DNA of 64,000 nt from an uncultured cyanobacterium (GTDB lineage Bacteria; Cyanobacteriota; Cyanobacteriia; CAKZMO01): contig CAVRCJ010000015.1 of NCBI GenBank assembly GCA_963719515.1, positions 100,435-164,434 on the forward strand. The letters are read 5' to 3'. Below, in pieces: positions 3,196 through 64,000 of the stretch (its first letter is position 1; every line of letters begins with the position of its first letter). The translations under genes were made by a program, and so were the position numbers. Below the pieces are notes generated by a model. It made no database searches, was not told where the DNA came from, and saw only the letters and a list, made by a program, of their open reading frames with translations.

Positions 3196-3220
3196 CCTTA
3201 CGCCTAGCTCAAGCACCGCT

Positions 3221-4309: not shown

Positions 4310-4328
4310 GCTGCGGAGGACAAAGCTC

Positions 4329-5102: not shown

Positions 5103-5200
5103 CTGCTCTTGAGGTCTGCTCAATTCTCGCCTCGCGAATTGTGGCGGCTGAAGGTAATCCTCTCAGCTGCGCTTTCCTCAGCGAGGCGCTGTGCCAGCAT

Positions 5201-9090: not shown

Positions 9091-9795
9091 TCAAGGAGCA
9101 AGTAAGCGATCGTACTCTGCTTTAACAACGCCATAGCATTTGCAGCAGGCCTGCTTAAGTGCTTCCCGCTCCAAAATTTCAACCTGCCCTCGACTATAGC
9201 GAATTAGGCCAGCTTCCTGCAGGGCGCTAGCGGCGACGGTGACGCTGGCACGCCGGGTGCCCAACATGCTGGCCAAAAAGGCCTGGGTAATCTTTAGCGA
9301 GGAAGACTGAGCGCAATCTTGAGACTGCAAAAGCCAGCGTGCCAGCCGCTCCTCTGTGGGATGGAACCGATTGCAGACGGCGGTTTGACTCACTTGAGCA
9401 ATAAAGGCTTGGGTGTAAAGCAGCAGCAGCTTTTGGAGCGCTTTACCTTCGTTAAAGGCCTTGCTCAACACAACGGCATCGAGGGCGATCGCCTCTCCGG
9501 GGATCTGCACAACGGCCCGGCTCGCGTCATACCGGCCGCCCAGATAGACGGAATACCCCAGCATGCCATCGCTTCCTACAATACCGGCTTCGATGGTCGT
9601 GCCGTCTTCCATGATCTGAACCAATGAGATCATGGCGCAAGTAGGGAAGTAAACCGTCGATATCGTCTCTGCTGCCTCATAGATGATTTGCCCTGATCGA
9701 AGCGTTACGTCTCTAAGATATGGGGCTATTTGCAGGTACTCTGCTTCCGGCAGCAGCGCCAGTAGACGGTTCTGGCTCGCCCGTTTTAAGTTCAA
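9091..9795 (-). CDS. Crp/Fnr family transcriptional regulator
   Basis: QNRLLA, VYFP, AVCNRFH..EERLARWLL and HTH TQAFLASMLGTRRASVT. Confidence 0.92.
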   Translation of the reverse strand: MNLKRASQNRLLALLPEAEYLQIAPYLRDVTLRSGQIIYEAAETISTVYFPTCAMISLVQIMEDGTTIEAGIVGSDGMLGYSVYLGGRYDASRAVVQIPGEAIALDAVVLSKAFNEGKALQKLLLLYTQAFIAQVSQTAVCNRFHPTEERLARWLLQSQDCAQSSSLKITQAFLASMLGTRRASVTVAASALQEAGLIRYSRGQVEILEREALKQACCKCYGVVKAEYDRLLAP

Positions 9796-10027
9796 GGTAT
9801 TTCTCTTATGTTGCGTTCCGTAATCGGTAATGTGGAGAACCGTTTTACGGGTAGGCTGACGACATCACGATGACCAGCCAAGGGTTGCGCTAACTGCCGT
9901 CAAACGCAGCTTTTTCCTATGGCGTGAGCATAGCACCTGCGAGCAATGCGGTTTGATACGATTTGAGCAATGTTGTCTAAACCTTGTCTAAGCTGCAGCT
10001 TAGCTACTAGACAGGAAGCCCCGCGCT

Positions 10028-10210
10028 CTACCCGTCAGGGTGAGCGTCGGGATGAGAGTCGCGGTCGTCGATGGGGCTCAATGCCCCGGAGACGGCCAAA
10101 CTTCGGATGTACTCCCTAAGGACATCGTTGATAGTTCTTTCGGTCATCTCACAATACTTGTCAAGATGCTGCTTTTCTCTGTCAGCGGCTCTAATAGTTA
10201 TTTGCTGCAT
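10028..10210 (-). CDS. Small ribbon-helix-helix (CopG-like) protein inside the IS
   Basis: QITIR beta-strand followed by EKQHLDKYC and RTINDVLREYIRSL helices. Divergent from tnpB. Confidence 0.7.
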   Translation of the reverse strand: MQQITIRAADREKQHLDKYCEMTERTINDVLREYIRSLAVSGALSPIDDRDSHPDAHPDG

Positions 10211-10243
10211 GTCGTTCTGATGTCAATATGCTATCATTATTGC

Positions 10244-11440
10244 ATGAAAGTCACTTATCAGTACAAGTTGCGTCCAGCGGCTGAGCAAACGGTTACCATG
10301 ACCCGATGGCTAGATAGGCTTCGGGCACAGTACAACTGGTTGCTGGCTGAGCGATTCGACTGGTGGGAGATGAACCGCTGTTCGGTCAACGCCTGCCCAC
10401 TCACCTGTAGCCTTGCGCCACTCAAAGATAATCCTAATTACTGCAGCCAGAAGGCTAGCCTAGTACCTCTCAAGCGAGAGCGACCCTGGTACAAAGATTT
10501 GCATTCGCAGGTACTCCAGGAGGTGACGAAGCAGGTAAAGCAGACGTTCGAGCGTTTCATCAAAGGTGATAGGAATGGTAAGCGTAGCGGCAAGCCTCGG
10601 TTCAAAGGCGCGGGGCGCTACAGGACGTTCACGTTCCCGCAGATGAAACCTGACTGCATCGATGGAAGTCGTATTACCCTGCCTAAGATTGGCCAGGTGA
10701 AGCTAATCCTTCATCGCCCGATACCTGATGGGTTTACTGTCAAAACGGCCAAGGTGACTCGCAAAGCAGATGGTTGGTATGTGAGCCTGTTACTGGAAAA
10801 CAATGCCGTTCCGATGCTTACTCCGGATGTCGATAGGGCTAAGTCTGTCGGTGTTGACGTTGGGCTGAAGGATTTCTTGGTTACCAGTGACGGTGAGAGC
10901 GTTCCTATCCCTCAGTTCTTTCGACGCTCAGAGCGGCAGCTATCCAAGCTGCAGCGGCAGCTATCGAGACAGAAGAAGAGCTCTAACCGCTGGCGTAAGC
11001 AGGTGAATCGCATCGCCAAACTGCATCTGAAAATATCGCGTCAGCGTCGTGATTTCTTTTCTAAGGTGTGGGATTGGCTGTTTTCAAAGTACGATGTTGT
11101 CGCTCATGAAAAGCTCAACATCAAAGGACTTGCTCGAACCAGACTGGCAAAGTCAATCGCTGATGCCGCATGGGGTACATTCTTGGAGATAGGCTCTTTC
11201 AAAGCCGCGAAAGCTGGAAAGATGACCATCGCTGAGAACCCACGCGGAACCAGCATTGATTGCTCGGGTTGTGGTGAGCGGGTACCAAAGACGCTGGCCG
11301 ATCGGGTCCATAGTTGCCCGTCATGCGGCTTAACGATCTGTCGCGACCACAACGCGGCTATCAACCTATTGAATAGGGCTGTGGGACATCAAGCCCTTAA
11401 TCTCTCAGGAAATGTCTCAGCAGTAGCTGGGAGTCACTGA
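10244..11440 (+). CDS. tnpB: RNA-guided endonuclease TnpB
   Basis: YQYKLRP N-terminus, RuvC residues GVDVG, HEKL and RDHNAA, Zn finger CSGC/CPSC. Confidence 0.95.
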   Translation: MKVTYQYKLRPAAEQTVTMTRWLDRLRAQYNWLLAERFDWWEMNRCSVNACPLTCSLAPLKDNPNYCSQKASLVPLKRERPWYKDLHSQVLQEVTKQVKQTFERFIKGDRNGKRSGKPRFKGAGRYRTFTFPQMKPDCIDGSRITLPKIGQVKLILHRPIPDGFTVKTAKVTRKADGWYVSLLLENNAVPMLTPDVDRAKSVGVDVGLKDFLVTSDGESVPIPQFFRRSERQLSKLQRQLSRQKKSSNRWRKQVNRIAKLHLKISRQRRDFFSKVWDWLFSKYDVVAHEKLNIKGLARTRLAKSIADAAWGTFLEIGSFKAAKAGKMTIAENPRGTSIDCSGCGERVPKTLADRVHSCPSCGLTICRDHNAAINLLNRAVGHQALNLSGNVSAVAGSH

Positions 11441-11482
11441 GGAAGCCCGCGCTGTATGCGTAGCATCAGCGTCGGGAGGATG

Positions 11483-14400
11483 TCACGCCGACCCATCGAC
11501 GACGCGCTTCAGCGCTATCCAAAATCGGCTCCCTTGCCCCAGCACTGACTCGACGCCTACCCGGCCGCCCATGCGCTGGACGCCCCGCTTAACGATAGAT
11601 AGCCCAATCCCGGTGCCGGCATAGACCTCAGCGCTGTGCAGTCGCTCGAAGGGTTTGAAGATGCGCGCTTGATGTCGGGGGGAAATGCCAATGCCGTTGT
11701 CCTCAACCCAGATCCGCACGTACTGTACATCTGTCTCGCAATCCCTCGACGCTGTGGGAACATCAGCCCAGATTTTAATCTGCGGCAGCGTGCCCGGTTC
11801 AACAAACTTCAAAGCGTTGCGAATCAGGTTGTTTAGCACTTGCTCTACGACGCTGCGCTGAACGTAAACCATGGGAAAGTCTTGGCCAACTTCAACCGTA
11901 GCTTGAGCGACCCGTAAAGTGGGCTCTAGAGCAATTAAGACTCTCTTCACGACAATACCTGCATCAACACGCTGCAGATGAATCTCAGACCGCCCTAGGC
12001 GACTGTAGTTCAGCAGGTCTTGAATCAGCGTATCTAAAGTCTCAGCAGAGGTGGCCATGCGGCGGATATACTCGTGGCCTAAATCATCAAGCGCAGAGCC
12101 GTAGTCTTCTTCCAACACTCGCGCAAAGCCTTGAATCGCCCGTAATGGCGCCCGCAAGTCATGGGCAACGGAGTATGAAAAAGATTCTAGCTCCAGATTG
12201 GCTTCCTCTAGCTTCTCAGTCCGCTCCTGCACACGCTGCTCTAGAGTGATGTTGAGCTCGTGAAGCTTCTGCTCACCCCGATTGCGGACAATCGCCGCTG
12301 CCAGGCAGTTGGTGACCGCCTGCAAAAAATTAACGTCATCTTGAGTAAAGTCTTGAAGTCGGCGGGAATGCACGCCTAAGATGCCGAAGGGCCCCTCATT
12401 CCCTCCAATAATGGTGCTCATGCCGCTAATGACCTGGTGCTCAATGAGCAGGTCCGGTCCGGTAAATCGAGGCTCCCTGCGCAGATCCTTGACCACGACG
12501 GGATGTTGAGATGAGAGCGTGTAGCCTGCTTGGGAGTCCCCCTCGCTGCTAACTGTCGCCTTGCCGACGAGACCAGGCTGCCAGCCTACGCCAGATCTCA
12601 GCAGCAGCGCCTGGCCATCGGGCAATAGCTCGAGCACTTTGCAGTAGTCTACGTCTAGGCTAGCCGCAAGCATCTGAGTTGCTTGATCAAACAGCGCGTC
12701 TAAACTCAGTCCCGATAGCGCGGTCTGACTCAGCTGTGCGACAACCGCCTGCTGCTCTAGGCGACTGGCAAGCGATGCCTCGGCCTGCTTCTGCGCTGTC
12801 ACATCGGCAGCCATGGAAATCACGAGCCTGGCGCCACTATCAATTTGGCCTAGAGGCGCTGAGCTAAACAGCCAGGTCCGCCGCTCGCCGCCCTTAGTTC
12901 TCACCTCAAATTCGCCTTCATCAACCCGTCGGTTAAGGTCATAGAGGCGATTGATCCAGTCCAAAACGTCGCTTTGCTGTTCACCGTAGGCCCGCTCTGT
13001 CCAGTCGCTCAAGGTCTGTAGCTCGCTGGCCTCATATCCCGTAATGTCGGTTACCGTTCGGCTCAACCGAAAGATTTCCCCGTCTTCCCCGTGAATGATG
13101 ATGGGGAAAGGGGCTTCGGTGACCGCCCGCCGAAATCTCGCTTCGCTCTCCCTCAGCTTTGCCTCTGCCTGCTCGCGCTCCCCAATCTCCTGCTGCGCCT
13201 GCTGATAGAGCATGGCCTGCTGAACAACTAGGCTAATCTGCGTTGAAAGCTGCTTTAAAGATTTGATTTCAAGCGGCTGCCACTCGCGAGGCGCTCTGCA
13301 GTGATGGGCAATGAGCAGTCCCCAGACCTCAGTGCCCTGCAAGATGGGGACAACCAAGTTCGCTTTGACCTGCAGTGACGCTAGAAAATCGACGTAGCAC
13401 GGGGTAAGCTCACCGCTGTGAATATCGGGAATGACTTGCAGCTGTCCGGACTTGTATTGCTTAATATAGCTGGCCGACAGGCAGGGATCGCAGAACGGCA
13501 GGCTTTGGAGAGAATTCCACTGGGCATCCACCGATTCAGACAGGACAACGCCATCGTCGGGCGTCTGAAGCTGAAAGATGACGACCCGATCGGTCTGCAG
13601 GAACGCTCGCACTTTACTCACGGCGCTCTGCAGCAGTTGGCTCAGGTCTAACAGCGGCAGATCGCTGCCCCCAACGGACCATCTCCGAATCAATTGAGTG
13701 ATCTCCATCGCTAGCCGCTCAGACTCCAGCATCCGGTAGCGCTCGATATCAGCTTGCTTAGACGGCGTGATATCAGCGACCGTACCCAGCATCCGCCCCA
13801 TCGGGCGATCGCCATCGGGGTAAAATCGACCCTTACTGCTGAGCCAGTGGATAGAGCCGTCTGCCCAAACGGTGCGAAACTCTATATCGCACTGGGTTTG
13901 GTTTTGCAGAGACCGCCGGACAGCCTGCTGCAGGGCGGCACGGTCTTCTGCATGCACCCGCTTTAAAAGTGCGCGGTAGGTAGACAGCACCTCTCCATCA
14001 GTTAGCCCCAAGAATGTGCTGGCCTGCCCCGAGTAGAGCAGTCCGCCGCTTGAGCGCCACTCCCAGGCGCCCATTTGGGACGCGTCCAAGGCAAGCCACA
14101 GACGCTCGTTACTTTGCCAAAGCTGCCGTTGCAGGTTTACCTTCTCGACGGCCTGCTCGATGCTGCGCTGTAGCGATAGCGGCGTAATTTGACCCTTAAC
14201 TAAATAATCTTCTGCCCCCGCTTTGAGCGTCTGCGCGGCTAGGAATTCGTTTCCCTGACCGGTGATCATGATTAGCGCGGGCATTTGGTCTTTCAGCTGT
14301 ACTTTGAGTTCAGTCAAGAACTCCAGTCCGTCACAGTCGGGTAGACTGTAGTCCAGCAGCACCACATCAGGTTGAGCCTGCTGGCACAGCGCCAGCCCTA

Positions 14401-42342: not shown

Positions 42343-43700
42343 TTGACTACTCCCACGGCTAAAGCGCGTGGGATTCTTGGATTGCTCCAAGACTTTTCTG
42401 CTTCGTAGCACCTGCCTTCCGAGATTTGCTCTCCATGCGCGAAGCGCAGGCTTCGCCAACGGGTCTTACGGTCGCTCCACAGACTGACACCGCTAGACCC
42501 GCGGCCAATACGTTTACAGCAGCGTTTACGTCTCTATCATGCTTCACTTCGCACTCAGGGCACTGCCACCCTCGAATATTCAGCGGCAGCTTATCTACAA
42601 CGTGACCGCAGCTGCCACAGCGCTTAGAGCTGGGGAACCAGCGGTCTATCTTGACGAGCTCCCGCCCGTACCATTCGCACTTGTAGGTAAGCTGCCGCAC
42701 CAGCTCACCCCAACTCGCATCACTGATAGCCTGCGCCAGTTTGTGGTTTTTCACCATGTTCCCCGCTGCTAAGTCCTCGACGGCGATCGCTTGGTTTTCG
42801 CGCACCAGCCGGGTTGTCAGCTTGTGTTCGCGAAGCGTCCCGAAGGGAAGCAGGTCTTTGCGGGCATTGGCTATCTCGGCGTGGACCCTAGCCACCCTGA
42901 GCCGCGCTTTGTATCGGTTGTTCGAGTCCTCTTGCTTCCGGCTGAGCGCCTTTTGAGCTTTCCTCAGCTTGCGGTACTTGGCCTTGAAGCCCTTGGGGTT
43001 AGCCATCTTCTCACCTGTGCTCAGCGTGAGCAGACTGGTGATGCCCATGTCTAGCCTAACTTTGTTAGGAGATTGCGGCAGGGGCTCAATCTCTACCTCC
43101 ACCAACAGCGACACAAACCAGCGTCCTGCAGGCGTCAGCTTCACCGTGATGGTCGATGGTGCGGCATCTTTCGGGAGCTGGCGCGACCACCTAATCGGCA
43201 ATGGCCCGCAGCACTTAGCTAGGTAAACTTGACCGCCCTTAAACTTGAATGCCGCCTTGGTAAACTCCGCGCTGCCGCCGTTGCGCTTCTTTTTGAAGTT
43301 GGGATACTTAGCCCGACCGGCGAAGAAGTTAGTGAAGGCGGTCTGCAGATGTCTCAGCCCCTGTTGAAGGGGAACCGAGCTAACCTCAGTAAGAAATTCA
43401 AGGCCCTCCTCTTTTTTCCACTGGGTCAGCATCGACGAGGTTTGAGCGTAGCCGACGCCCTCTTGCTTCTGGTACCAGGCCTCAGTCCTTGCCGCCAAAG
43501 CGCGGTTGTAGACCAGGCGAGTACACCCCATTGTCCAGCGCAAGAGCAACTCTTGCTCAGCAGTAGGATAGAAGCGGTAGCGGTAAGCCTTTTGAACCAT
43601 ACTTACAGTCTAAGACTCGCCGTGTAAAGTATGAATATGTTCGCTACGCTCACCGCTTTATACCCCACCGCTAAAGCGGATGGGTTTTACGGCGACCTCT
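42343..43700 (-). mobile_element. IS200/IS605-family tnpB-only element (TTAT/TCAA type)
   Basis: ATAA (=TTAT) at 43701-43704, subterminal hairpins, and TTGA (=TCAA) at 42343-42346. Confidence 0.9.
42359..43600 (-). CDS. tnpB: RNA-guided endonuclease TnpB
   Basis: AYRYRFYPT, RuvC residues LDMG, VEDL and DRDVNAA, Zn finger CGSC/CPEC. Confidence 0.95.
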   Translation of the reverse strand: MVQKAYRYRFYPTAEQELLLRWTMGCTRLVYNRALAARTEAWYQKQEGVGYAQTSSMLTQWKKEEGLEFLTEVSSVPLQQGLRHLQTAFTNFFAGRAKYPNFKKKRNGGSAEFTKAAFKFKGGQVYLAKCCGPLPIRWSRQLPKDAAPSTITVKLTPAGRWFVSLLVEVEIEPLPQSPNKVRLDMGITSLLTLSTGEKMANPKGFKAKYRKLRKAQKALSRKQEDSNNRYKARLRVARVHAEIANARKDLLPFGTLREHKLTTRLVRENQAIAVEDLAAGNMVKNHKLAQAISDASWGELVRQLTYKCEWYGRELVKIDRWFPSSKRCGSCGHVVDKLPLNIRGWQCPECEVKHDRDVNAAVNVLAAGLAVSVCGATVRPVGEACASRMESKSRKAGATKQKSLGAIQESHAL

Positions 43701-43818
43701 ATAACTTTTATTAACCAAAGATATCAAAGGATCGCCAAACAAAAGAAAATCTTATAGCTTGCATTTGAGATTGCGTTCCTGATTCGCGCTGACTGTCATA
43801 AATCAGGGCATTTTTGAT

Positions 43819-43866
43819 ATAGACTCAAGTATATACAGATTCGGCTTTCGATAGAGCTTTGTCTAT
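43819..43866. promoter_or_regulatory. Two ATAG-N8-CTAT-type boxes upstream of sbtA
   Basis: 43851-43866 is perfect (ATAGagctttgtCTAT). 43819-43834 has one mismatch. Confidence 0.68.
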
Positions 43867-44253
43867 GGAAGATGGCTTCGCCTTTCAGCCGCGTTTGGAG
43901 AGCGGCCACCTCCAGACAGTCTGCCAGCAGGTTCTCCTGTAAGCCCTGTGCTGTAAAGGCGAAGCGCTCTATCCCTAGCTTTTTCCAACTCTCACTTGTC
44001 ACAACAATCACGCCTCTCGCAAGGCGGTGGAAGGAGGTATTTATGACAAATTTCTCTCGCATGGCCCATCAGGACTTTCTGCGCGCCGCAGAAGCTCCCG
44101 CAGCCGGCTCTGTTGGCGTATTCCCCGAATGCGCAACCATTTTTCATTGCTACTGCCGATGAATGACCGCTACCCCCTCGAGGGGGTAGACAAAAACGCC
44201 TTCCTAGACATATCGCTCAAATCCTACGAACCAACTACTGGAGGTATTACAAA

Positions 44254-45375
44254 GTGGATTTTTTCTCTGATTTCTTGACGCTCTTCCTGGCGAAGTTGCA
44301 GTCCCCAACCCTTGGCTTTTTGATTGGTGGCATGGTCGTTGCCGCCGTCAATAGCCGACTGACAATTCCAGATCCGGTCTATAAATTCATCGTCTTCATG
44401 CTGCTCATCAAAGTCGGTCTGAGCGGCGGCATTGCAATCCGTAATGCCAACCTATTGGAGATGCTGTTACCTGCACTATTTGCCATGGTAATAGGGATTC
44501 TTATCGTGTTCATCGGGCGCTATACGCTAGCCAAGCTACCGAACGTCAGAGTCGTAGATGCCATTGCGACCGCGGGCCTGTTCGGTGCCGTGAGCGGCTC
44601 TACCCTTGCCGCCGGTCTAACGATCCTGGAAACGGAAGGCATCGAATACGAAGCTTGGGCGGCGGCACTCTATCCTTTTATGGATATCCCAGCACTCGTG
44701 ACGGCGATCGTCTTGGCCAGCATCTATACCAAAAAGCAGCGCGATACCGCAGATGAGTATCTCAGCAAGCAGGAGTATCACGGCAAACAGCTCGTTACCG
44801 CAGGCGGACGTCCCAGCGGAGATCAAGACATTGTCGCAAGCGGATACCCCAGAGATCAGCGCCCTGAAAACGATCGGGTCAAGATATGGCCCATCGTCAA
44901 GGAAAGCCTCCAGGGTTCTGCTCTGTCTGCCCTGCTGCTCGGCATCGCTCTAGGTCTGCTAACCCGACCGGAAAGCGTCTTTGAAAGCTTCTACGAGCCC
45001 CTGTTCCGCGGCCTGCTTTCGATACTGATGCTGGTAATGGGGATGGAAGCTACGGCAAGGCTTGGTGAGCTGCGCAAAGTGGGCCAGTGGTACGGCCTAT
45101 ATGCTGCAGTAGCGCCCTTGCTGCACGGGCTCATCGGGTTCGGTCTCGGCTGGATTGCCCACGTCCTTACAGGATTCAGCCTTGGCGGCGTCGTGCTCCT
45201 AGCCGTCATTGCTTCCTCTAGTTCAGACATCTCGGGACCGCCCACTCTGCGAGCTGGTATCCCATCGGCCAATCCCTCCGCCTACATCGGCTCGTCTACA
45301 GCCGTCGGTACGCCGATTGCGCTTGCCGTAGGAATACCGCTCTTCATTGGGCTTGCCCAGGCGCTGGGCGGCTGA
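44254..45375 (+). CDS. sbtA: Na+-dependent bicarbonate transporter SbtA
   Basis: LQSPTLGFLIGG, FGAVSGST, YPFMDIPA and SSSDISGPPT. Confidence 0.93.
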   Translation: MDFFSDFLTLFLAKLQSPTLGFLIGGMVVAAVNSRLTIPDPVYKFIVFMLLIKVGLSGGIAIRNANLLEMLLPALFAMVIGILIVFIGRYTLAKLPNVRVVDAIATAGLFGAVSGSTLAAGLTILETEGIEYEAWAAALYPFMDIPALVTAIVLASIYTKKQRDTADEYLSKQEYHGKQLVTAGGRPSGDQDIVASGYPRDQRPENDRVKIWPIVKESLQGSALSALLLGIALGLLTRPESVFESFYEPLFRGLLSILMLVMGMEATARLGELRKVGQWYGLYAAVAPLLHGLIGFGLGWIAHVLTGFSLGGVVLLAVIASSSSDISGPPTLRAGIPSANPSAYIGSSTAVGTPIALAVGIPLFIGLAQALGG

Positions 45376-45441
45376 TTCTAAAAAGACTCTTGGTCTGCCG
45401 GTGCTCCCTTTGACCCGGCGACCAGCGCGGCGGCCCAGTGA

Positions 45442-45861
<420 letters not shown>

Positions 45862-45887
45862 GCTAGAGCTCCGCTGAATCAAACCCG

Positions 45888-45916
45888 AAAAGCCGGGGTT
45901 ATAGCCCTGGCTTTTT
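45888..45916 (+). terminator. Intrinsic terminator after sbtB
   Basis: aaaagccgggg-ttatag-ccctggcttttt. Confidence 0.75.
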
Positions 45917-46018
45917 GGTGTCCGCACTTCGTGTTCGCCGGATGTTGACAAGCAACTCCGATAGTTAACTCACATTCGGCTTACGAGGAATCCGGCATTG
46001 GGGATTGTCTGAATCTCT

Positions 46019-47530
46019 TCAGAGGTGCGAGACTGCGCCATAGACGTCGGGGTTGTCACCCTCTAGGTCAAGGGCATTAGATGCTGCGTTGTCGACGTAC
46101 GTCGGTGGGGCTCCCAGCACCAGTACGCGAGGGGGGAAGACCGCCGATGTCGGTCGGTCTGACATCACGAAAAGCGCCCCGCCTTTCCCTCGCCCAGACC
46201 TATGGCCTAAACCGGCCAGGGCCAGATTGCCCTCAAAATGCACATGGTTCAAAATCAGGCTGCCGGAGCGCACAAAGACCGCGCCGCCCAAGCCAGCACC
46301 ACCGCCCCCCACGCCAAGAAACCCATTCCCCCCAAAGAGGCCGCCCCGCCCCGGCAGTCCTGAATTGTCCCCGGCCCCGCCGCTGCCGCCAAAACCTCCC
46401 GCCCCGCCGCCGCCGCCAAAGCCACCGCTTCCCCCGTTGCCACCACTGCCGCCCGCGGCAACCTCTATTGTCCCGATGCCGCCATTGCCCCCGTTGCCTG
46501 CATTCCCGTAGCCGCCAAAGCCCCCGCCGCCGCCAAAGGCGATCGCCCCCGCACTGCTCCCCGATCCCCCCGCGCCAAAGCCGCCGAAAATGCCCGTACC
46601 GCCGTCGCCGCCGTCGCCGCCGCTGCCGCCATTGCCGCCGTCCGCGCCGTTGCCGCCGTTGCCGCCGTTGCCGCCGTTGGCAAAGCCGCCAAAGCCACCC
46701 CCACCCCCGAAAACAATGCTGCCAATGCCGTTGATGCCGATGCCGTTGACCCCGGCGATCGCCCCCCGATTGGCCTTGAGTTTTGTTTTGCCCCACCTGA
46801 TGTCAATCTGCGGCCTGCTTTCTGCGGGAGCGCCGGGAAGACTGACGCCGTTGACTCCCGCGATCGCCCCCCGGTTCACCTTCAGCTGGGTTATGCCTTG
46901 GCTCTGAATTTCAATGTGCGGGGCCAACCGCTGGCTGCCCCGCCCGCCGACGGCCTGATTGTTTAAAAACTGGACGTGCACCAGGTGCACAACGCCCCCA
47001 TTGACCAAAAGTCCCCCCCCCATTCCGGCACTCCCCCCCCCTCCGCCAGCGCCATCTTCACCCTGGGCCAACCCGTTGGCAAAGGTCACGCCCTGGATCG
47101 TGACATCGCCGCCGTCAATCTGGAGGATGCGGTGGCGAGACTCACCGCTGATAGTGAGACGGCCATTGCCCCGCATTGTCAAGCTGCTGGTCAGGGACGG
47201 TAGGGGGCTTTGCAGCGCGACCGTCCCCTCAATCTCGCCTAGATCGAGCAAATCGTCGTCAGGTGATTCGTTGGCTTGCGCGATCGCCCAGCGCAGCGAT
47301 CCAACCCCGGCATCGGTTGTTGTGGTGACCTGAATCGGCTTTACGTGCAGTGGGGCTGCTTGATCCGCTGCTGTTTGGGCCGTTTCTATCTGGGCCATGA
47401 GAGGCCGCCCTTCATAAACGCTGGCTTCCGCCCCTAGGTTGAGCCACTCGAACCTAACATCGAGCCACCCGATCACCAGGAGACCCAAGATGATAAGCAG
47501 ACCATTCCGCCAGCTGTAGCCGCTATTCAT
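46019..47530 (-). CDS. Secreted/anchored glycine-rich protein with beta-helix-like repeats
   Basis: N-terminal TM, VTTTTDAG.GSLRWAI..AN motif, GGxGGxG repeats and GGA..F..N.A repeats. Confidence 0.75.
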   Translation of the reverse strand: MNSGYSWRNGLLIILGLLVIGWLDVRFEWLNLGAEASVYEGRPLMAQIETAQTAADQAAPLHVKPIQVTTTTDAGVGSLRWAIAQANESPDDDLLDLGEIEGTVALQSPLPSLTSSLTMRGNGRLTISGESRHRILQIDGGDVTIQGVTFANGLAQGEDGAGGGGGSAGMGGGLLVNGGVVHLVHVQFLNNQAVGGRGSQRLAPHIEIQSQGITQLKVNRGAIAGVNGVSLPGAPAESRPQIDIRWGKTKLKANRGAIAGVNGIGINGIGSIVFGGGGGFGGFANGGNGGNGGNGADGGNGGSGGDGGDGGTGIFGGFGAGGSGSSAGAIAFGGGGGFGGYGNAGNGGNGGIGTIEVAAGGSGGNGGSGGFGGGGGAGGFGGSGGAGDNSGLPGRGGLFGGNGFLGVGGGGAGLGGAVFVRSGSLILNHVHFEGNLALAGLGHRSGRGKGGALFVMSDRPTSAVFPPRVLVLGAPPTYVDNAASNALDLEGDNPDVYGAVSHL

Positions 47531-56997: not shown

Positions 56998-57169
56998 TCT
57001 CCTGCAGAATTTTTAAAGTTAAAGGGGCGTAGTTTAACAACATTTATGTTTCTTTATTATCCGATGTTCGGCCCGGTTAGTAAAGGTGGGGGTTTCATAA
57101 CCCAGCCGAAAGGGCGATCGCGTATCTCGGAGATGTTTCCTCTAATCTCTCCCTTCCTGGGTTAAGGGC

Positions 57170-57450
57170 TACGGCGCACAAACATCTTTGTTGAGAAGCC
57201 TACCCCCCTTAATCCCCCTGCGTCCGTAGGACGCGCTGCGCGAAAGCCAAGGAGGGAAAGCGCAGTCCTTCCCCTTAGCCTGCCGTATACACACATCTTG
57301 GCTGTGAGCCGTAAATGCTGCTTTAACCCCCTTAATCCCCCCTTGCCAAGGGTGGAAGCCACGGTCCTCTCCCTTGAGCTTTGGCGTCAGCCTGCCCGAA
57401 GGGCGTAGGGGAGTTAGAGGGGGTCAGACCTACTTGTGTGGGTTAAGGGG
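57170..57450. repeat. Nested MITE/REP-like repeats
   Basis: Two ccccttaatccccc..gccaagg units, the inverted ggggagttagaggggg, two c.gtatacacacatct-like ends and small hairpin inserts. Confidence 0.55.
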
Positions 57451-57468
57451 GAGAACTGAGAAGGGTGA

Positions 57469-57744
57469 TTACAGCGATCGAATGCGCATCAGGTAGGCCA
57501 GCGCCTGCCCTTCCCGGCGGCTGAGCCTCACGCCATCATCTCGAATATCCACGGGGCCGGTCCAGAGGGACTGCTCCACGGCATAGCGGTTGATGTGCAT
57601 TAGGTGTATGGTTTCGCGGAGGGCGGGCGGCGAGCCGATAATGATATGGCGCACTACTTCGCCATCGGGGGCGGGTGGGGTTTCGTCTAGGCGAAGCAGT
57701 GCCGCCTCGCGATCGAGGGGCTGGTCAGGGTATATAAATGTCAT
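57469..57744 (-). CDS. Small conserved cyanobacterial hypothetical protein
   Basis: RHIIIGSP.A...TIH.MH...YA..W motif. AAAGGA SD upstream. Confidence 0.7.
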   Translation of the reverse strand: MTFIYPDQPLDREAALLRLDETPPAPDGEVVRHIIIGSPPALRETIHLMHINRYAVEQSLWTGPVDIRDDGVRLSRREGQALAYLMRIRSL

Positions 57745-58050
57745 TTGGGTTCCTTTCTTTGTGGATTAGGGAAGAAACCCAAGCTTTGGCCATCCCTGGA
57801 CGTGACGTGTTTCGGGATGGCACGGGATAATGCCCGTAGCCGCCGAGACAGGCTAAATCTGTCGAGGGGGTTAGGCGGCGATCATTGGTCGCAACAATGA
57901 CCGTCGCCGACTGACCAAATACTTGGGAGCCGAACTGCGGGATGCAGCTCTCAAGAAGAGACAATATCGCATCTAGTACAAACAATCAAGCCCGAGTTTT
58001 GGCGGCTGATATGCTGGGGGTAGTCTGCAGCGCATTTTGAGGCGGCCGCG

Positions 58051-58599
58051 ATGATCCAAACCGCTAAGCTTTCGATTGACGAATATCACCGGATTGTGGC
58101 GTCGGGAGCCTTGGGGAGCCGCCGCATTGAGCTGCTGTGCGGAGAGATGGTGGAAGTGAGCCCGGAGACGCCTTACCACGCTAATCAGAACAACAGGCTG
58201 TTTAAGTATTTGCTGGCGCGGTTTGATGGGCTAGCTGATGTGCGATCGAGCCATCCGATTACGCTGGGCGACTCGGAGCCGGAGCCGGATATCGCCTTAG
58301 CCCAGCTCCCGGAGAACCGCTACGATACGCGCCACCCTATGCCCGCTGACCTCTATTTGGCGATGGAGGTGTCTTACTCGACGCTGGAGTATGACCTGGG
58401 ACGCAAGCGGGAGATCTATGCAGCGGCAGGGATAGGCGACTATTGGGTGGTGAATCTGCGGCAGCGGCAGCTGCACCTGTTTGGGGAGCTGCGAGGGGGT
58501 GAGTATGGGCGGCAGCGCGAGCTGGCGGCGGGGACGGTGAGCGTCTCGGCGTTTCCTGAGGTTGAGCTTAGCGTGGCGCGATTGCTGCAGGGCGCGTAG
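58051..58599 (+). CDS. Uma2 family endonuclease-like protein
   Basis: RIELL.GE, SEPEPDI, EVS.STL.YD...K..IYA.AGI.DYWVVNL. Confidence 0.92.
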   Translation: MIQTAKLSIDEYHRIVASGALGSRRIELLCGEMVEVSPETPYHANQNNRLFKYLLARFDGLADVRSSHPITLGDSEPEPDIALAQLPENRYDTRHPMPADLYLAMEVSYSTLEYDLGRKREIYAAAGIGDYWVVNLRQRQLHLFGELRGGEYGRQRELAAGTVSVSAFPEVELSVARLLQGA

Positions 58600-58979
58600 C
58601 TTGGCATCATTGAAAAATGTTTTGTTTAGCGATTGTAGATTTTGCCCATACCACGAAGGCAGCCGATATTGGCAACACGTCTTTGAAAATTTTGTGAAGA
58701 TTGCCTTTGCTATATGTATCTTTAATAACTTTCATGCAAGCGTTCAGCATCAAAAGACGCGAGGATCTACACCTTTCGAAAATTGAAATATAATTGAGCA
58801 GTAGTATAAAATCCATGTATTCCGGATCTCGGTAAAAGCATACATTTTAAAACAATAATCTTGGGCTTCAACTAAAGAGTTTCCGGCGGAGCCTAATCTC
58901 TACCAGTTAAATTTTGCTTTTGTTAGTTGAAAGAGAACCTCTCTTTAAGCTTCCAGAAAACTAAATCAAACCATTGCTC

Positions 58980-60020
58980 ATGTCTAAAGATTTAGAAAAA
59001 AGTTTGGCGAGATTCAAAACTGCAGTCTTAGAATTTGCCTCTGCCTCACAGCAGAGTAAATACACATACTATCGAAAAGGTGAGCGAATTATAAACGAAG
59101 GAGAGATAGGAACCGACTTCTTCTTAATTATAGAGGGAACTGTAAAGATCCTCAAAGGCGACGGCAAAAACATTGGGAATGAGAAAGAGATTGCCTTGAG
59201 ACATGCTGGTGACCCGATAGGTGAAATGACTCTTCTTCAGAGAAACAAGAGGAGAACAGCGACTGTTGAGATTGCAACCGATACTGCTTCTTTTATTAAG
59301 CTTGCAAGAGAAGATGTGTTTTCTCTTGTGAGAAGCGACTCCGAAATCAGAGATTCTCTCCAACAATTAGCTATTTCCAGGGCAAAGGAAACTCAGCAAG
59401 TTATTGAAGGAAACATACATGTAGAGAATAAGATCACGTCCTGTCTGCTTACCGATATTCACAATTTTACTTATTTAGGAAAAATTGTAGAAGAAGAATA
59501 CGTAAACAACTTTTTATTTGATTTTCTCGACAGCTCTGAGGAGATAGCGTCTCATTATAATGGTAGATTTGAAGACCAAGGCGATGGCTTCAAGATTCTC
59601 TTAAGTGAGGGCGATCATGCGAATGATGCTGTTTGCTGTGCTATTGAGATCAGAGACTTATTCTTAAATATGCAATCGCGATGGAAGGTTAGAAGTGAGG
59701 CTTTCCAAAAGATTGGACTGGGTACTGGAATTTGCTCAGATTTTATGTCCATAAGGCATAAAAAACATAAAAATTCATCTAGGCAGTTAAAAGAGAGAGT
59801 GTTCTCACACTCGATAAGCATTGCTGCTGCTATTTCAAAGTATAGAAAAGATTCGACAGACACTAATATTTACGTAACCAAAAAAACAAATTGTCTCCTT
59901 AATAAAGGACGCTTTAATATAGATGCTGAGACTGAAGTTCTGCTTGAAAATACAAATAGAAAGTATTTAATTTATAGAATAGAGAGCAGAGTTAAAAAGC
60001 CCTCTTGGGTATTTCTTTAG
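58980..60020 (+). CDS. Cyclic-nucleotide-binding domain fused to a divergent class III nucleotide cyclase
   Basis: CNBD: IINEGE, IIEG.V, GEMTLL...RRTATV. Cyclase: TDIHNFT, QGDG, IGLGTGI. Confidence 0.82.
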   Translation: MSKDLEKSLARFKTAVLEFASASQQSKYTYYRKGERIINEGEIGTDFFLIIEGTVKILKGDGKNIGNEKEIALRHAGDPIGEMTLLQRNKRRTATVEIATDTASFIKLAREDVFSLVRSDSEIRDSLQQLAISRAKETQQVIEGNIHVENKITSCLLTDIHNFTYLGKIVEEEYVNNFLFDFLDSSEEIASHYNGRFEDQGDGFKILLSEGDHANDAVCCAIEIRDLFLNMQSRWKVRSEAFQKIGLGTGICSDFMSIRHKKHKNSSRQLKERVFSHSISIAAAISKYRKDSTDTNIYVTKKTNCLLNKGRFNIDAETEVLLENTNRKYLIYRIESRVKKPSWVFL

Positions 60021-60602
60021 ATGGCGATAATGAAGTTAGAAAGCTCTGGAGGCGATATTGACTCTAGAATATTTTCGCTTTCACCTTCCAAGACAGATGC
60101 GTTGTTACTTGGACGAGACACAACACAAGCACCATTGATCTCGGAACTAGACAAATCCATTCGAAATCAGATTTTTATTAGCTATAGCCATCGAGATGTA
60201 GAATGGCTAGAAAAACTTCAAAAATACCTAAAGCCAGCGATTCGAAATAAAACGGTCAATATTTGGGATGACACGAAGATTCAGCCCGGTAAAAGATGGC
60301 ATGAAGAAATTAATGCGGCTTTATCTGCTGCAAAGGTAGCTGTCCTACTTGTAAGCGTAGACTTTCTCAACTCTGATTTCATCAACGAGAACGAACTTCC
60401 TCCTTTGTTAGAAGCCGCTAAGTCTAAGGAATTGACAATTATCTGGATACTGATCAGCGAATGCATGTATGAAGAGACAGAAGTCAAACACTACCAAGCT
60501 GCCCACTCGCTCAGTCGCCCACTCGTGAGCCTCAATGCTGCGGAGGAAGCTACTACGCTCAAAGAAATTTGCAAGGCTATCAAAAATGCTGCGAATCAAT
60601 AA
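60021..60602 (+). CDS. TIR domain protein
   Basis: IFISYSHRD, IWDD..I.PG..W, VLLVS..FL.S.FI..NELP. Start could be 60030. Confidence 0.9.
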   Translation: MAIMKLESSGGDIDSRIFSLSPSKTDALLLGRDTTQAPLISELDKSIRNQIFISYSHRDVEWLEKLQKYLKPAIRNKTVNIWDDTKIQPGKRWHEEINAALSAAKVAVLLVSVDFLNSDFINENELPPLLEAAKSKELTIIWILISECMYEETEVKHYQAAHSLSRPLVSLNAAEEATTLKEICKAIKNAANQ

Positions 60603-61026
60603 GCACTGTTACCGTGAATCGCTGCTTACCACTGCTCATTCAGCGTAAACACAGAGTGTGTCGACAGCCGCCCTGCGATCGCCTCTGCCTCCGTTTGCGC
60701 CAGTCCCTAGCGACTCCGCCAGCTTGCCAAACTTGACCTTGACGGGCCGCGTCCACATCGACGTAGACGGGCGGGCCGGGATCTCGGAACTGTGGGTCAT
60801 GGACGAACTAAGGGGTAAGAATTGCCTCCCTAATAGTGAAACAATTTGGCCCTCACCACGAGACCAATATCCCTCCTCGCCAAAAGCACTTAACCGCCAG
60901 TGCCTCTATCATGAAAAAGAGCCCAGGGTTCAAGCCAACCCATCGCCAACCAGGCAATCGCCATCGCCCAACCGCCCCGCGCGATCGCCCCGTTCCCCTC
61001 CCCCAAAAGTATAGATATCAGCGCTG

Positions 61027-62313
61027 ATGCTAGCACCCTCCCCCCCCGCACAGTCCTCAAGCGAGCGATCGCTGTCCGACTACTATCAACAGGTCCGCCA
61101 GCTCAGCGAACGCACCTGCCAACCGCTCGAAATTGAAGACTACGTCGTCCAGAGCATGCCAGAGGCCAGCCCGCTCAAATGGCACCTCGCCCACACCGCC
61201 TGGTTTTTTGAAACCTTCGTTTTAGTTCCCCACCTCAAGGGCTACAGCGTCTTTCACCCCAAATACGACTACCTGCTCAACTCCTACTACGAATCCGTCG
61301 GCGATCGCACCCCTGCCGCCCAGCGGGGAACCCTCTCTCGCCCCACCGTGGCCGAAACCTATCGCTACCGGGCCTATGTCGACGACGCGATGCAGTCGCT
61401 GATTGGTGAAGCCGCTGACGACCCCGAGATAAAGTCGCTAATTGTTTTAGGCCTCAACCACGAACAGCAGCACCAAGAATTTCTGTTCACCAACATCAAG
61501 CACATCTTCGGCAGCAACCCGCTGCGCCCCACCTACAGCGCCGACCTGCCAACCCCTGCCTCCGCAGCAGACGCGACGGCAGGCAAACCCCTCAAGTGGC
61601 TAGACTACGCCGCCCAGCTGTACGAAATTGGCTACGACGGCGACGGGTTTGCCTTCGACAACGAGCTGCCCCGCCACCCCGTCTACCTGCGGGAGTACAA
61701 GCTGGCTTCTCGCCTGGTCACCAACGGAGAATACCTAGAATTCGTCCAGGCTGGTGGCTACAGCAACGCCGACCACTGGCTTTCAGAGGGGTGGTCAACG
61801 GCCCGCTCCAGCGGCTGGCAAGCCCCGCTCTACTGGGAGCAAATCGACGGCGACTGGTGGACAATGACCCTAGGCGGCATGCGCCGCTTAGCGGAAGATG
61901 AGCCCCTGTGCCACGTCAGCTTTTACGAGGCAGACGCCTACGCCCGCTGGTGCGGCAAGCGTCTGCCCACAGAGGCCGAATTGGAAACGGCGGCGGCGGG
62001 GGTGCCCCTGTCCGGCAACTTCCTCGATAGCGGCTTACTGCAGCCCGCGCCAGCCCATGGCGACAGCCCGCCCGCGCAGCTGTTCGGCGACGTGTGGGAA
62101 TGGACGAACAGCACCCACCAGCCCTACCCCGGCTACCGGCTGGAGTCCGGGGTTTTGGGCGAATACAACGGCAAGCTGATGTGCAATCGCCTCGTGCTCC
62201 GGGGCGGCTCCTGCGTCACGCCGCAATCCCACATTCGCCCCACCTACCGCAACTTCTATCCCCCGGCCACGCGATGGCAGTTTACCGGCGTTCGCTTGGC
62301 GGATACGCCCTGA
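61027..62313 (+). CDS. egtB: Ergothioneine biosynthesis sulfoxide synthase EgtB
   Basis: SPLKWHLAHT, HEQQHQE, FAFDNE and an FGE-like domain with GDVWEW and RGGSC. Confidence 0.92.
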   Translation: MLAPSPPAQSSSERSLSDYYQQVRQLSERTCQPLEIEDYVVQSMPEASPLKWHLAHTAWFFETFVLVPHLKGYSVFHPKYDYLLNSYYESVGDRTPAAQRGTLSRPTVAETYRYRAYVDDAMQSLIGEAADDPEIKSLIVLGLNHEQQHQEFLFTNIKHIFGSNPLRPTYSADLPTPASAADATAGKPLKWLDYAAQLYEIGYDGDGFAFDNELPRHPVYLREYKLASRLVTNGEYLEFVQAGGYSNADHWLSEGWSTARSSGWQAPLYWEQIDGDWWTMTLGGMRRLAEDEPLCHVSFYEADAYARWCGKRLPTEAELETAAAGVPLSGNFLDSGLLQPAPAHGDSPPAQLFGDVWEWTNSTHQPYPGYRLESGVLGEYNGKLMCNRLVLRGGSCVTPQSHIRPTYRNFYPPATRWQFTGVRLADTP

Positions 62314-62419
62314 GCCGTGACTCTAACGTCTGGTTTAGGCTAGCCTAGCTAAGGCCAGCGCCATTGCCAATGTGGCGACCGCCAACACAGATCTTTCCTA
62401 TCTCTCAAGGAACTTTTTC

Positions 62420-62914
62420 ATGCGCCCCAACCCGATTCCCCCCGGTCCCGGTCAAGAATCCGTGTGGGACTATCCCCGACCGCCGCGGATTGAAGATGTG
62501 ACCAAGCACATCAAAATCATTTTTAACGGTGAACTGATTGCGGATACCCATCACGCTAAAAGGGGACTGGAAACCAGCCATCCCCCCACCTACTACCTCC
62601 CCGAAACAGACATCAAGATGGAGTATTTGCTTCCCAGCGCTCACTCCACCTACTGCGAGTGGCGGGGCTGGGCAAAATACTACAGCCTCAAGGTGGGCGA
62701 TCGCCAGGCAAAAGATGTGGCCTGGTACTACACCGAGATCTTTCCGGCCTACGAGCAGCTCAAAGGCCATCTCGCGTTTTATCCCGGCCCCATGGATGCC
62801 TGCTACGTCGATGACGAAAAAGTGACGCCCCAGGCGGGCGCATTCTACGCCGGCTGGATTACTAGCGATATCGTCGGACCGTTTAAGGGCGACCCCGGCA
62901 CGAGGGGCTGGTAG
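62420..62914 (+). CDS. DUF427 protein
   Basis: ESVWDYPRPP, ETSHPP.YY, CEW.G.A.Y and FKG.PGT.GW. Confidence 0.85.
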   Translation: MRPNPIPPGPGQESVWDYPRPPRIEDVTKHIKIIFNGELIADTHHAKRGLETSHPPTYYLPETDIKMEYLLPSAHSTYCEWRGWAKYYSLKVGDRQAKDVAWYYTEIFPAYEQLKGHLAFYPGPMDACYVDDEKVTPQAGAFYAGWITSDIVGPFKGDPGTRGW

Positions 62915-62916
62915 CC

Positions 62917-63711
62917 ATGTGCAGACTCCTGGCTTATATCGGCTCCTCCATTCAGCCCGATCGACTAATCTACGCGCCTGAACATTCCCTCGAAGTTCAA
63001 AGCTACAGTCCCCAAGAAACCATGACCACCTCGGTCAACGCCGACGGTGTAGGGTTGGGGTGGTACTCCCCTGAGCGGGATGCTGCCCCATTTCTCTACA
63101 AAAACGTCCTGCCGATTTGGGCTGATACCAACCTCCCCCACCTCAGCCGCTACATCCAGACGGAGCAGTTTTTGGCCTATATCCGCAGCGCCACGTCGGG
63201 GCAAGCCACCAGCCTCAGCAACTGCCAACCCTTCAGCCACGACCAGCTTGTGTTTACCCACAACGGGTTTATCGAAAACTTCAGGGATACGCTCTACCAG
63301 CCTATCCGCAAGCATCTTACAGACGAAATCTACCGCACCATCGAAGGGACCACGGATTCCGAGCATATTTTTGCTCTCATGGCGAACGAGATGGTGGTGA
63401 ATGGGCATAGCCTAGCGATCGCTGTGCAGGAGTGCTTTAAAACGCTCCTCAAGCTTTCAGCCTGCGGGGAGGTGGCCTTTAGTGCCAACGTTATCGTCAG
63501 CGACGGACACCGTTTGGTTGCCACTCGATTTGCCAGAGGGAAACCAGCCCCCTCGCTCTACTGGCTTTCCGACGATGCCGCTTTCCCAGAGGGCGTCATT
63601 GTTGCCTCTGAACCCTTGTTCCCAGGGGACTGGACCGCCTTTGAGGAAGACAGTATGCTTTGCGTGGAGAAAGGCAGCAAGCCCAAGCTACAGCCTATTG
63701 AGACAGTGTAA
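62917..63711 (+). CDS. egtC: Ergothioneine biosynthesis Ntn-hydrolase EgtC
   Basis: MCRLLAY, NADG.G.GWY, RSAT, NCQPF, HNG and GTTDSE. Confidence 0.9.
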   Translation: MCRLLAYIGSSIQPDRLIYAPEHSLEVQSYSPQETMTTSVNADGVGLGWYSPERDAAPFLYKNVLPIWADTNLPHLSRYIQTEQFLAYIRSATSGQATSLSNCQPFSHDQLVFTHNGFIENFRDTLYQPIRKHLTDEIYRTIEGTTDSEHIFALMANEMVVNGHSLAIAVQECFKTLLKLSACGEVAFSANVIVSDGHRLVATRFARGKPAPSLYWLSDDAAFPEGVIVASEPLFPGDWTAFEEDSMLCVEKGSKPKLQPIETV

Positions 63712-63955
63712 AACGGCTAGGGCAGCCGCCTTGTGGGCGATCGCGAGAACTCTGAGCCGAAACGGTGCCCTTGAGGCCTTGGCGCTGCGGGGCGTGGCGC
63801 ATTGTAGAGTGCGGATTGAGATAATTTGCGCTCTATACTGCGCCAGGATGCTCTAGATTCGTCCGCTCTTGGGGCAACGCTGGGAGGCCAAGAGCGGCAA
63901 TTGACGCCTTGCCTGAAAAGCCAAAACTCCGTGCCAGAGCAGGTTTGGAGGAGAA

Positions 63956-64000
63956 TGGACGTAACTGGACTCGAACCAGTGACCCCCACGATGTCAAAGT
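63956..64000 (-). tRNA. 3' half of tRNA-Val(GAC), cut by window edge
   Basis: Minus strand reads TTGACAT-CGTGG-GGGTCACTGGTTCGAGTCCAGTTACGTCCA. Confidence 0.75.

Follow-up and report, generated by a model that had tools for sequence, protein, structure and literature searches.

The window analysed here, a 64-kb stretch of contig CAVRCJ010000015.1 from an uncultured cyanobacterium, carries an AT-rich island with two adjacent genes on the forward strand (Table 1). Gene 1 encodes a protein in which a cyclic nucleotide monophosphate (cNMP)-binding domain (CNBD) is followed by a class III cyclase-homology domain, and gene 2 encodes a TIR protein. Both genes form one reading frame with a single TAG between them, and the ATG of gene 2 comes next. 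In relatives such as P0004, P0129, and others, the linker at the junction position is uninterrupted, and the CNBD-cyclase with its separate TIR appears to be a split version of what is usually a single chain in this family. The combined linker of the window has a length of about 63 residues, compared with about 45 in P0004.

Table 1. Positions in the window of the island, its two genes and their domains, and the genes at its borders (ORF, open reading frame; aa, amino acids).
Feature	Position	Strand	Basis
AT-rich foreign island, carrying both genes	58606..60628	.	GC content; HIP1; no match in relatives; homology breaks
Untranslated AT-rich leader of the island, with promoter-like sites	58606..58979	+	sigma-70-like matches
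Gene 1, CNBD and class III cyclase-homology protein, 346 aa	58980..60020	+	ORF 58974..60020; likely start ATG 58980, alternative TTG start 58974
cNMP-binding domain and C-helix, aa 24–143 of gene 1	59049..59408	+	Pfam cNMP_binding
Class III cyclase-homology domain, aa 145–339 of gene 1	59412..59996	+	predicted fold; metal Asp residues
Junction, gene 1 TAG (60018–60020) and directly gene 2 ATG (60021), one frame	60018..60023	+	read ...ctt tag atg gcg...
Gene 2, TIR protein, 193 aa	60021..60602	+	ORF; TIR_2
TIR domain, aa 51–158 of gene 2	60171..60494	+	Pfam TIR_2
Uma2-family gene, resident left flank outside the island	58051..58599	+	Pfam Uma2, 1.3e-28
NNH3-NACHT (NLR-like) gene remnant, cut off by the island	60629..60800	-	match to the L012 protein

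The island stands out by its composition. Windows of 400 bases across 58600–60599 revealed a GC content of 0.347–0.430, compared with 0.515–0.667 in both flanks, and the HIP1 octamer GCGATCGC, found 89 times in the whole window where 1.86 copies are expected from shuffled sequences, has no copy across 57121–60675. Two equally long HIP1-free gaps are found elsewhere in the window (9492–13805 and 42790–46539); the gap at the island is not unique, and it is support for a foreign origin rather than proof. The island sequence was not found in 30 related genomes, including four of the same genus and many fragmented assemblies, bar one weak match at the level of the TIR, and its flanks match related genomes at 75–84%. 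An AT-rich cyanobacterial donor is plausible, since the top relatives of the TIR come from Nostoc-type cyanobacteria. A first-pass annotation of the window had described an AT-rich segment without HIP1 and of foreign origin, and this description is borne out by these values; so are, by those given below, its descriptions of gene 1 as a CNBD joined to a cyclase domain with both metal-binding Asp residues (in TDIHNFT and QGDG) and of gene 2 as a TIR protein with the predicted catalytic Glu.

Gene 1 is present in one copy in its own genome and is identical to entry P0001 of the protein collection (100% over 346 residues). Its CNBD scores 51.4 bits with Pfam cNMP_binding (PF00027; 1.1e-13; cut-off 27.5), and it resembles the CNBD of the Pycsar effector PycTIR, both in the PADLOC model, which it matches over that model's CNBD part (1.2e-15), and in PDB entry 8jsk (2.7e-15). 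PADLOC matches of gene 1 stay at the level of domains, with CNBD-TIR effector models being reached via the CNBD and models of the Pycsar cyclase PycC only weakly. Gene 1 retains an intact phosphate-binding cassette (G81-E82 ... R92-T93-A94), of which G81, E82, and R92 do not vary in a 21-row alignment and A94 hardly does. In the AlphaFold model, helix 121–142, the C-helix of the CNBD, continues without interruption into the strand with which the cyclase domain opens, a predicted geometry that would suit control of the cyclase dimer by ligand binding.

The middle domain of gene 1 is predicted to have the fold of class III nucleotidyl cyclases. An AlphaFold2 model built from a 40-row alignment, consisting of family members and canonical cyclases found by phmmer, reached a predicted local distance difference test (pLDDT) score of 93.8 and a predicted template-modelling score of 0.86, and superseded a model from a 4-row alignment in which the cyclase domain was poor (pLDDT 56.8). 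Comparison of residues 145–339 via VIA-align yielded Z scores of 23.8 to CyaB (3r5g; root-mean-square deviation 2.9, 186 residues aligned), 23.1 to the guanylyl cyclase Cya2 (2w01), and 23.1 to CyaC, with class III cyclases overall lying at Z 21–24, and Foldseek matched them at E ~1e-13. Structures of PycC or PucC, the latter being the cyclase of Pucsar, were not among the 50 VIA-align entries listed or the Foldseek matches listed, a similarity to them being still possible. A profile made from the cyclase domain of seven sequences found CyaB (1.4e-10) and Cya2 (2.1e-5) among the PDB sequences, and none of its 49 PDB sequence matches at E ≤ 1 was a PycC.

The family to which gene 1 belongs is rare. 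Searched exhaustively by phmmer, the cyclase domain on its own detected 24 proteins at E ≤ 1e-10, canonical cyclases following from ~1e-8. Among 5.8 billion clusters there were four relatives of gene 1, one of which, P0005, has only the CNBD in common; two loci were found when 185,579 species were represented by one genome each, five in metagenomes, and none on viral contigs (0 of 9 pattern matches). We counted 19 full-length members, namely the window protein, P0002–P0004, P0126–P0135, P0138, P0141, P0143, P0145, and P0146, and left out six fragments of 135–277 residues (P0136, P0137, P0139, P0140, P0142, and P0144). Behind the cyclase domain, nine of the 19 carry a TIR domain on the same chain and two a CHAT domain, one (P0126) ends in an EAD1 adaptor and one (P0134) in a STAND-type ATPase, and six reveal no recognised C-terminal domain; the metagenome loci L013 and L014 are CHAT forms additional to the 19. 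The fused TIRs themselves belong to at least three subfamilies. Judged from these proteins, the usual layout would be an N-terminal CNBD, a class III cyclase, and a C-terminal effector (TIR, CHAT protease) or adaptor (EAD1, STAND ATPase). The parts of the pair, for which co-occurrence elsewhere had been asked, thus do occur together in other loci, mostly as one chain, with P0004 as the fused counterpart.

In the phylogenetic tree, the family forms its own clade with 100/100 support, on a long branch from the CNBD-cyclase proteins P0161 and P0159. Inside the clade, 11 of the 18 inner branches are open, and the tree does not tell how often, or in which order, effectors were swapped. P0161 and P0159, the latter with N-terminal TPR repeats, are more canonical CNBD-cyclases, pass the Pfam cyclase cut-off, carry a Lys at the site of the canonical Arg, and may belong to the stock from which the family arose. 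As a separate observation, P0002 (residues 340–499) and P0133 (residues 340–455) display C-terminal Gly/Asn-rich short repeats without Pfam match, to which P0002 adds a long helical tail rich in Ala and Gln; both regions may be new kinds of output or adaptor domain.

The existence of such CNBD-cyclases without effectors, together with the fact that the nearest solved relatives of the domain (CyaB, Cya2, and CyaC) are physiological enzymes, would agree with gene 1 being a product- or ligand-regulated cyclase of ordinary signalling, similar to other sensor-regulated class III cyclases of cyanobacteria, next to which the TIR is incidental. We consider this quite improbable given the separate, well-supported clade, the conflict-type domains found on the same chain in 13 of the 19 members, the very rare and patchy occurrence of the family, and the foreign character of the island.

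Residue counts given here and below refer to an alignment of the 19 family members with 23 canonical cyclases. The two metal-binding Asp residues, D159 in TDIHNFT (codon 59454–59456) and D202 in QGDG (codon 59583–59585), align with the Asp of the canonical DIxGFT and GD motifs; they are present in 19/19 members and invariant in the 40 rows of the model alignment, and the segment FEDQGDGF is invariant or nearly so across the family. At the first base-contact position, four residues ahead of the second metal Asp, gene 1 has Glu198 (Glu in 17/19), a position held by Lys in canonical adenylyl cyclases and by Glu in guanylyl cyclases. The second base-contact position is occupied by Arg273 (Arg in 17/19), where canonical cyclases carry Asp/Thr or Cys. 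In the cGMP-making PfPucC, guanine is recognised by Glu118, four residues before the metal Asp122, and by Lys195, according to the text of the Pucsar preprint (bioRxiv 10.64898/2026.08.12.744502), and the Glu/Arg pair of our family matches this in spacing and charge. On the other hand, the invariant Gln200 lies two residues ahead of Asp202, just as Gln144 of EaPycC, a contact of CTP, lies two residues ahead of Asp146 (PMC11224242). By analogy, the pair Glu198/Arg273 hints, with low confidence, at GTP as the substrate and cGMP as the product, and cGMP is our leading guess; the product cannot be called, because the purine-type Glu/Arg pair and the CTP-type spacing of Gln200 disagree.

For gene 2, the gene call in the collection (P0006) has 190 residues, with ATG 60030 as its probable start. 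Pfam TIR_2 was matched with 56.1 bits (6.5e-15; cut-off 28), and Pfam found a TIR only, with no CNBD. The Glu of the NENEL motif, E125 (codon 60393–60395), is invariant in 35 rows, comprising gene 2 and 34 TIR homologues, and by analogy with other TIR NADases we take it to be the catalytic Glu. Compared with the fused relatives, gene 2 has 39% identity to P0004 at its TIR end (E 5.5e-37) and 17–26% to the other fused TIRs. A predicted complex of the products of genes 1 and 2 (score 0.00, mark 0.32) weighs neither way. In PADLOC, gene 2 matched SAVED-TIR and, best of all, ThsB1 (7.8e-19). Since the ThsB1 class produces signals, one could think of a reverse, Thoeris-like wiring, in which the TIR would sense infection and make an NAD-derived signal, and the CNBD-cyclase would be the responder, for example by consumption of nucleoside triphosphates or by secondary cNMP signalling. 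PADLOC matches of TIR domains cannot, however, tell signal producers from NADase effectors, the CNBD retains the cassette typical of 3',5'-cNMP binding, and the relatives swap the TIR for CHAT, EAD1, or STAND at a C-terminal, effector-type position, so that such a wiring appears to us very improbable.

With a probability of about 0.5, we consider the island to carry a member of a rare family of self-contained, cNMP-gated abortive-infection switches; the catalysis of the module, its ligand, self-activation, NADase output, and anti-phage function are what we infer for it. The cyclase domain would dimerise and, once triggered, make a 3',5'-cNMP. This product would bind the CNBD of the same and of neighbouring molecules, with the C-helix of the CNBD leading into the cyclase, and a self-reinforcing, threshold-type activation would assemble the TIRs into an NAD-consuming form, resulting in an aborted infection. 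In the split form, the TIR would be translated by coupled re-initiation and would then either associate with the product of gene 1 or respond indirectly. Activation through ligand-driven filaments has been described for PycTIR and PucTIR in PMC11224242 and bioRxiv 10.64898/2026.08.12.744502. No separate cyclase or CNBD-effector gene was found in the island, nor beside the homologues L001 and L013, and a self-made ligand is favoured for this reason; feedback activation of this kind is plausible. A more far-reaching version would place a full second-messenger immune circuit on one chain, in which the protein's own cNMP, possibly cGMP, binds its own CNBD, and an autocatalytic all-or-none switch spreads between molecules and fires any attached effector, be it TIR, CHAT, partners recruited by EAD1, or STAND, the stop-detached effector in the window still working in trans. 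We put this version forward tentatively, and as a whole it remains rather doubtful.

Effector swapping within the family and the truncated NACHT gene next to the island are consistent with the defence-type function that had been suggested for the pair at first pass. Several observations, concerning the cyclase domain, the junction, and the surroundings, nevertheless weigh against the abortive-infection switch. The Pfam profile Guanylate_cyc (PF00211) gave E 0.0047 and 17.0 bits, under the gathering cut-off of 21.9, and the call of a cyclase therefore rests on the fold; among the relatives in the family, only P0134 passes this cut-off (24.1 bits). At the position of the transition-state Asn, kept in 17/19 members, gene 1 has Ser280, as P0126 and L014 also have Ser there. 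The canonical transition-state Arg is found in 1/19 members (P0143), gene 1 having A284, and the motif N-x-x-x-R is accordingly not found in gene 1. Because the Arg is mostly missing family-wide and the Asn is a Ser in gene 1, catalysis in gene 1 may be weak, altered, or lost. A possible substitute for the missing Arg, and the sole one on offer, is K287, three positions past the canonical site (Lys in 18/19, Arg in 1/19), which the HMMER alignment to CyaB sets opposite the Arg after a 3-residue insertion.

These altered residues could also mean that gene 1 is a receptor only. Its cyclase domain would then be a pseudo-enzyme scaffold for dimerisation or nucleotide binding, and the CNBD would sense a cNMP from elsewhere, made by another host cyclase or upon infection, and switch the attached or adjacent TIR in the manner of PycTIR or PucTIR. 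The low Pfam score of the cyclase domain and the fact that CNBD-TIR effector models are the best PADLOC matches of the CNBD would suit such a protein, and catalytically inactive cNMP cyclase domains are described for some conflict-system proteins (Kaur et al. 2020, PMC7159879). The (near-)invariance of the metal Asp residues and of FEDQGDGF would be difficult to account for, though, if the domain had no nucleotide or metal chemistry, and the Asn is retained in most members, K287 may stand in for the Arg, and a partner cyclase gene is missing from the island and from the surroundings of L001 and L013. We therefore regard a mere receptor as unlikely, if worth keeping in mind.

The junction itself allows for two readings. 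Rather than splitting the gene into two working parts, the in-frame TAG may have inactivated it recently, in which case the window would hold a dead copy of a once-fused CNBD-cyclase-TIR gene that has also lost its Asn280. This would fit with one frame in which the TAG alone separates both ORFs, with the fused form being the norm of the family, with S280 in place of a residue that most members retain, and with the neighbouring NACHT defence gene being itself a remnant. Apart from the stop, however, both ORFs are full-length and intact compared with the relatives, and an ATG directly follows the stop, as in coupled genes, the chance of which is 1/64 for a given codon; the Ser at position 280 is, as mentioned, shared with P0126 and L014. 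Among the sequencing runs listed there was none of RNA, and coverage by metagenomes was limited to four DNA runs of one study that contained pieces of the region (share 0.09–0.15), parts without coverage carrying no meaning, and no contig or read covered the TAG/ATG junction. In metagenome copies that diverge by about 5%, 37 differences were listed (12 more were not), with 18 being synonymous and 19 nonsynonymous in these low-depth contigs; synonymous were 12/25 of those listed in the first ORF and 6/12 in the second. This is more synonymous change than expected at random and is weak evidence for constraint on both ORFs. Overall, a dead copy appears improbable to us.

Further points against the switch concern what surrounds and feeds it. 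No infection sensor was identified in the module, and the neighbours other than the NACHT remnant are housekeeping genes (amidohydrolase, flavodiiron, EgtB-like, DUF427, and GATase). Gene 2 is also closer, with up to 63% identity, to many cyanobacterial TIR proteins of unrelated architecture than to the TIR of P0004 (39%), and co-descent of the CNBD-cyclase and TIR halves is unproven for this reason.

The limits of the island are sharp. On the left, homology to the relatives ends at 58584–58587, up to where the DNA of the Uma2 flank gene is 77–79% identical to same-genus genomes; on the right, it begins again exactly at 60629, inside an intact NNH3+NACHT gene of a same-genus genome. Single low-depth metagenome contigs cease to agree with the window immediately behind 58605 and immediately ahead of 60629, which fits these limits. 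Neither a direct nor an inverted repeat pair was found flanking the edges, where only short repeats at chance level were seen. The intact gene on the right (L012) encodes 606 residues (Pfam NNH3 1.4e-43, NACHT 9.3e-09). Its residues 35–72 correspond to 60800–60687 of the window (63%) and its residues 178–203 to 60706–60629 (81%), with no further match of this protein in the window. The remnant has thus suffered an internal deletion and a frame change, and the island starts at its end. As only these two segments remain, the island has taken the place of the greater part of an NLR-like defence gene. G003, a genome of the same genus, has its Uma2 homologue on one contig and its intact NACHT gene on another.

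In the leader of the island, the sigma-70-like matches at 58766–58794 and 58783–58812 are no excess over chance (six found, 3.9 ± 1.9 expected), terminator-like sites in the region are not above chance either, and Rfam yielded zero matches in 57000–64000. The short leader ORFs 58562–58786 (+) and 58607–58816 (-), the latter with 68/69 codons on the opposite strand, are without Pfam match. Outside the island, a stretch of about 530 bp on the left (57470–58003) is repeated on at least eight other contigs of the same genome with 70–94% identity and is also present in same-genus genomes; it contains an ORF of 91 residues (57469–57744, -) without Pfam match and could represent either a family of small genes in many copies or what is left of a mobile element adjoining the island. 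To the right (61027–63711), there are genes for an FGE-sulfatase/DinB_2 protein, EgtB-like by its domains, a DUF427 protein, and a class II glutamine amidotransferase, presumably resembling an ergothioneine-type biosynthesis cluster.

The surroundings of two homologues can be added. The L013 homologue is preceded, at 2652–5720, by an S8 peptidase, a 118-residue ORF, and an AAA_15/AAA_21 ATPase. In the betaproteobacterial L001, the CNBD-cyclase-CHAT gene is followed by an ORF of 739 residues (9669–11888), whose match to Peptidase_C25 is sub-threshold (7.2e-4); it is not used here as evidence for a peptidase. The flanking genes of L001 and L013 are possible accessory or neighbouring defence genes. 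An ORF downstream of L002 (2229–3488) looked caspase-like by eye, had no Pfam support for it, and was not used.

Pycsar and Pucsar part the maker of the signal from its reader. When a single chain unites reader, maker, and killer, as in this family, it is not obvious what a diffusible messenger is for. Such a layout points to product feedback, in the form of threshold setting and amplification between molecules, as a possible reason. Being small, modular, and readily testable, with output domains of four kinds and with members both fused and split by nature, the family could become a compact model for the gating of TIR and caspase-like effectors by cNMP. For annotation, it matters that the current defence catalogues recognise neither gene as a system and that the cyclase domain lies under the Pfam threshold.

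Compared with known systems, the module comes closest to Pycsar, consisting of the cyclase PycC and the effector PycTIR or PycTM (Tal et al. 2021, as summarised in PMC11224242), and to Pucsar, which the text of the preprint presents as the cGMP branch of Pycsar (bioRxiv 10.64898/2026.08.12.744502). It has in common with them a cyclase of class III fold with two metal Asp residues, a CNBD, and a TIR output, as well as the resemblance of its CNBD to that of PycTIR and of its Glu/basic base-contact pair to Glu118/Lys195 of PfPucC. In Pycsar and Pucsar, however, cyclase and CNBD-effector are separate proteins, whereas in our family the CNBD precedes the cyclase on a single chain and the TIR follows, fused in the relatives and split off in the window. 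The effectors of our family moreover include CHAT, EAD1, and STAND, and the window cyclase domain fits canonical cyclases better than any solved PycC. With the hidden Markov models of PycC, gene 1 gave weak matches (1.4e-4 and 2.9e-3), and at E ≤ 0.01 the models PDLC02367 and PDLC02369 were matched by 14 and 11 of 21 alignment rows, respectively; membership of the cyclase in the PycC clades is uncertain. As the defining CNBD-effector protein is absent, the module appears to fall outside the definition of Pycsar, and its placement there by the first-pass annotation cannot be upheld, the more so as the cyclase matches CyaB and no PycC in the PDB search.

The same annotation had pointed to the CNBD on the cyclase as a different wiring. 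The arrangement is indeed there, but it is not unprecedented, since the PADLOC PycC model PDLC00734 (374 positions) already spans a CNBD and then a cyclase on one protein, and a CNBD on a defence-catalogued cyclase is thus known. All rows of the 21-row alignment match this model. When six relatives were scanned singly, P0159 alone spanned both domains (positions 33–345), P0129, P0146, P0134, and the window protein matched by the CNBD part only, and P0003 and P0161 each showed a second stretch. What sets the proteins of PDLC00734 apart is that no C-terminal effector is described for them.

A likeness also exists to cyclases of the CyaB1 type. CyaB1 of Anabaena is a class III cyclase that is regulated by GAF domains and activated by its product, and like gene 1 it carries a cNMP-binding regulatory domain N-terminal to the cyclase; the feedback proposed here would match its self-activation. 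CyaB1 is physiological, though, and has GAF domains instead of a CNBD and no TIR or CHAT output.

Finally, conflict systems of multicellular bacteria combine cNMP cyclase domains with STAND NTPases, EAD adaptors, TIR domains, and caspase-type peptidases (Kaur et al. 2020, PMC7159879), and the preprint text describes cNMP cyclases of an "immune clade 1" fused to STAND NTPases (bioRxiv 10.64898/2026.08.12.744502). P0134 with its STAND domain and P0126 with EAD1 fit this fusion pattern, and a module that stays constant while its ends vary between TIR, caspase-like, adaptor, and STAND domains would, by analogy, fit prokaryotic conflict systems in general and "immune clade 1" in particular. In the legend to Figure 1A of the preprint, cNMPBD, EAD, and TIR are among the domains drawn with cyclases (bioRxiv 10.64898/2026.08.12.744502), and the CNBD-cyclase-effector architecture may already be catalogued in its figure or table. 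No description of a CNBD-cyclase-TIR chain or of its split form was found in the literature searched, including parts of PMC7159879, two of its supplements, and parts of the Pucsar preprint. The TIR had been seen at first as standing alone in a two-protein wiring; with one frame cut by a single TAG and one polypeptide as the norm of the family, what is new in the window appears to be not a rewired two-protein Pycsar, but a split member of a rare family that joins a sensor, a cyclase, and an exchangeable effector.

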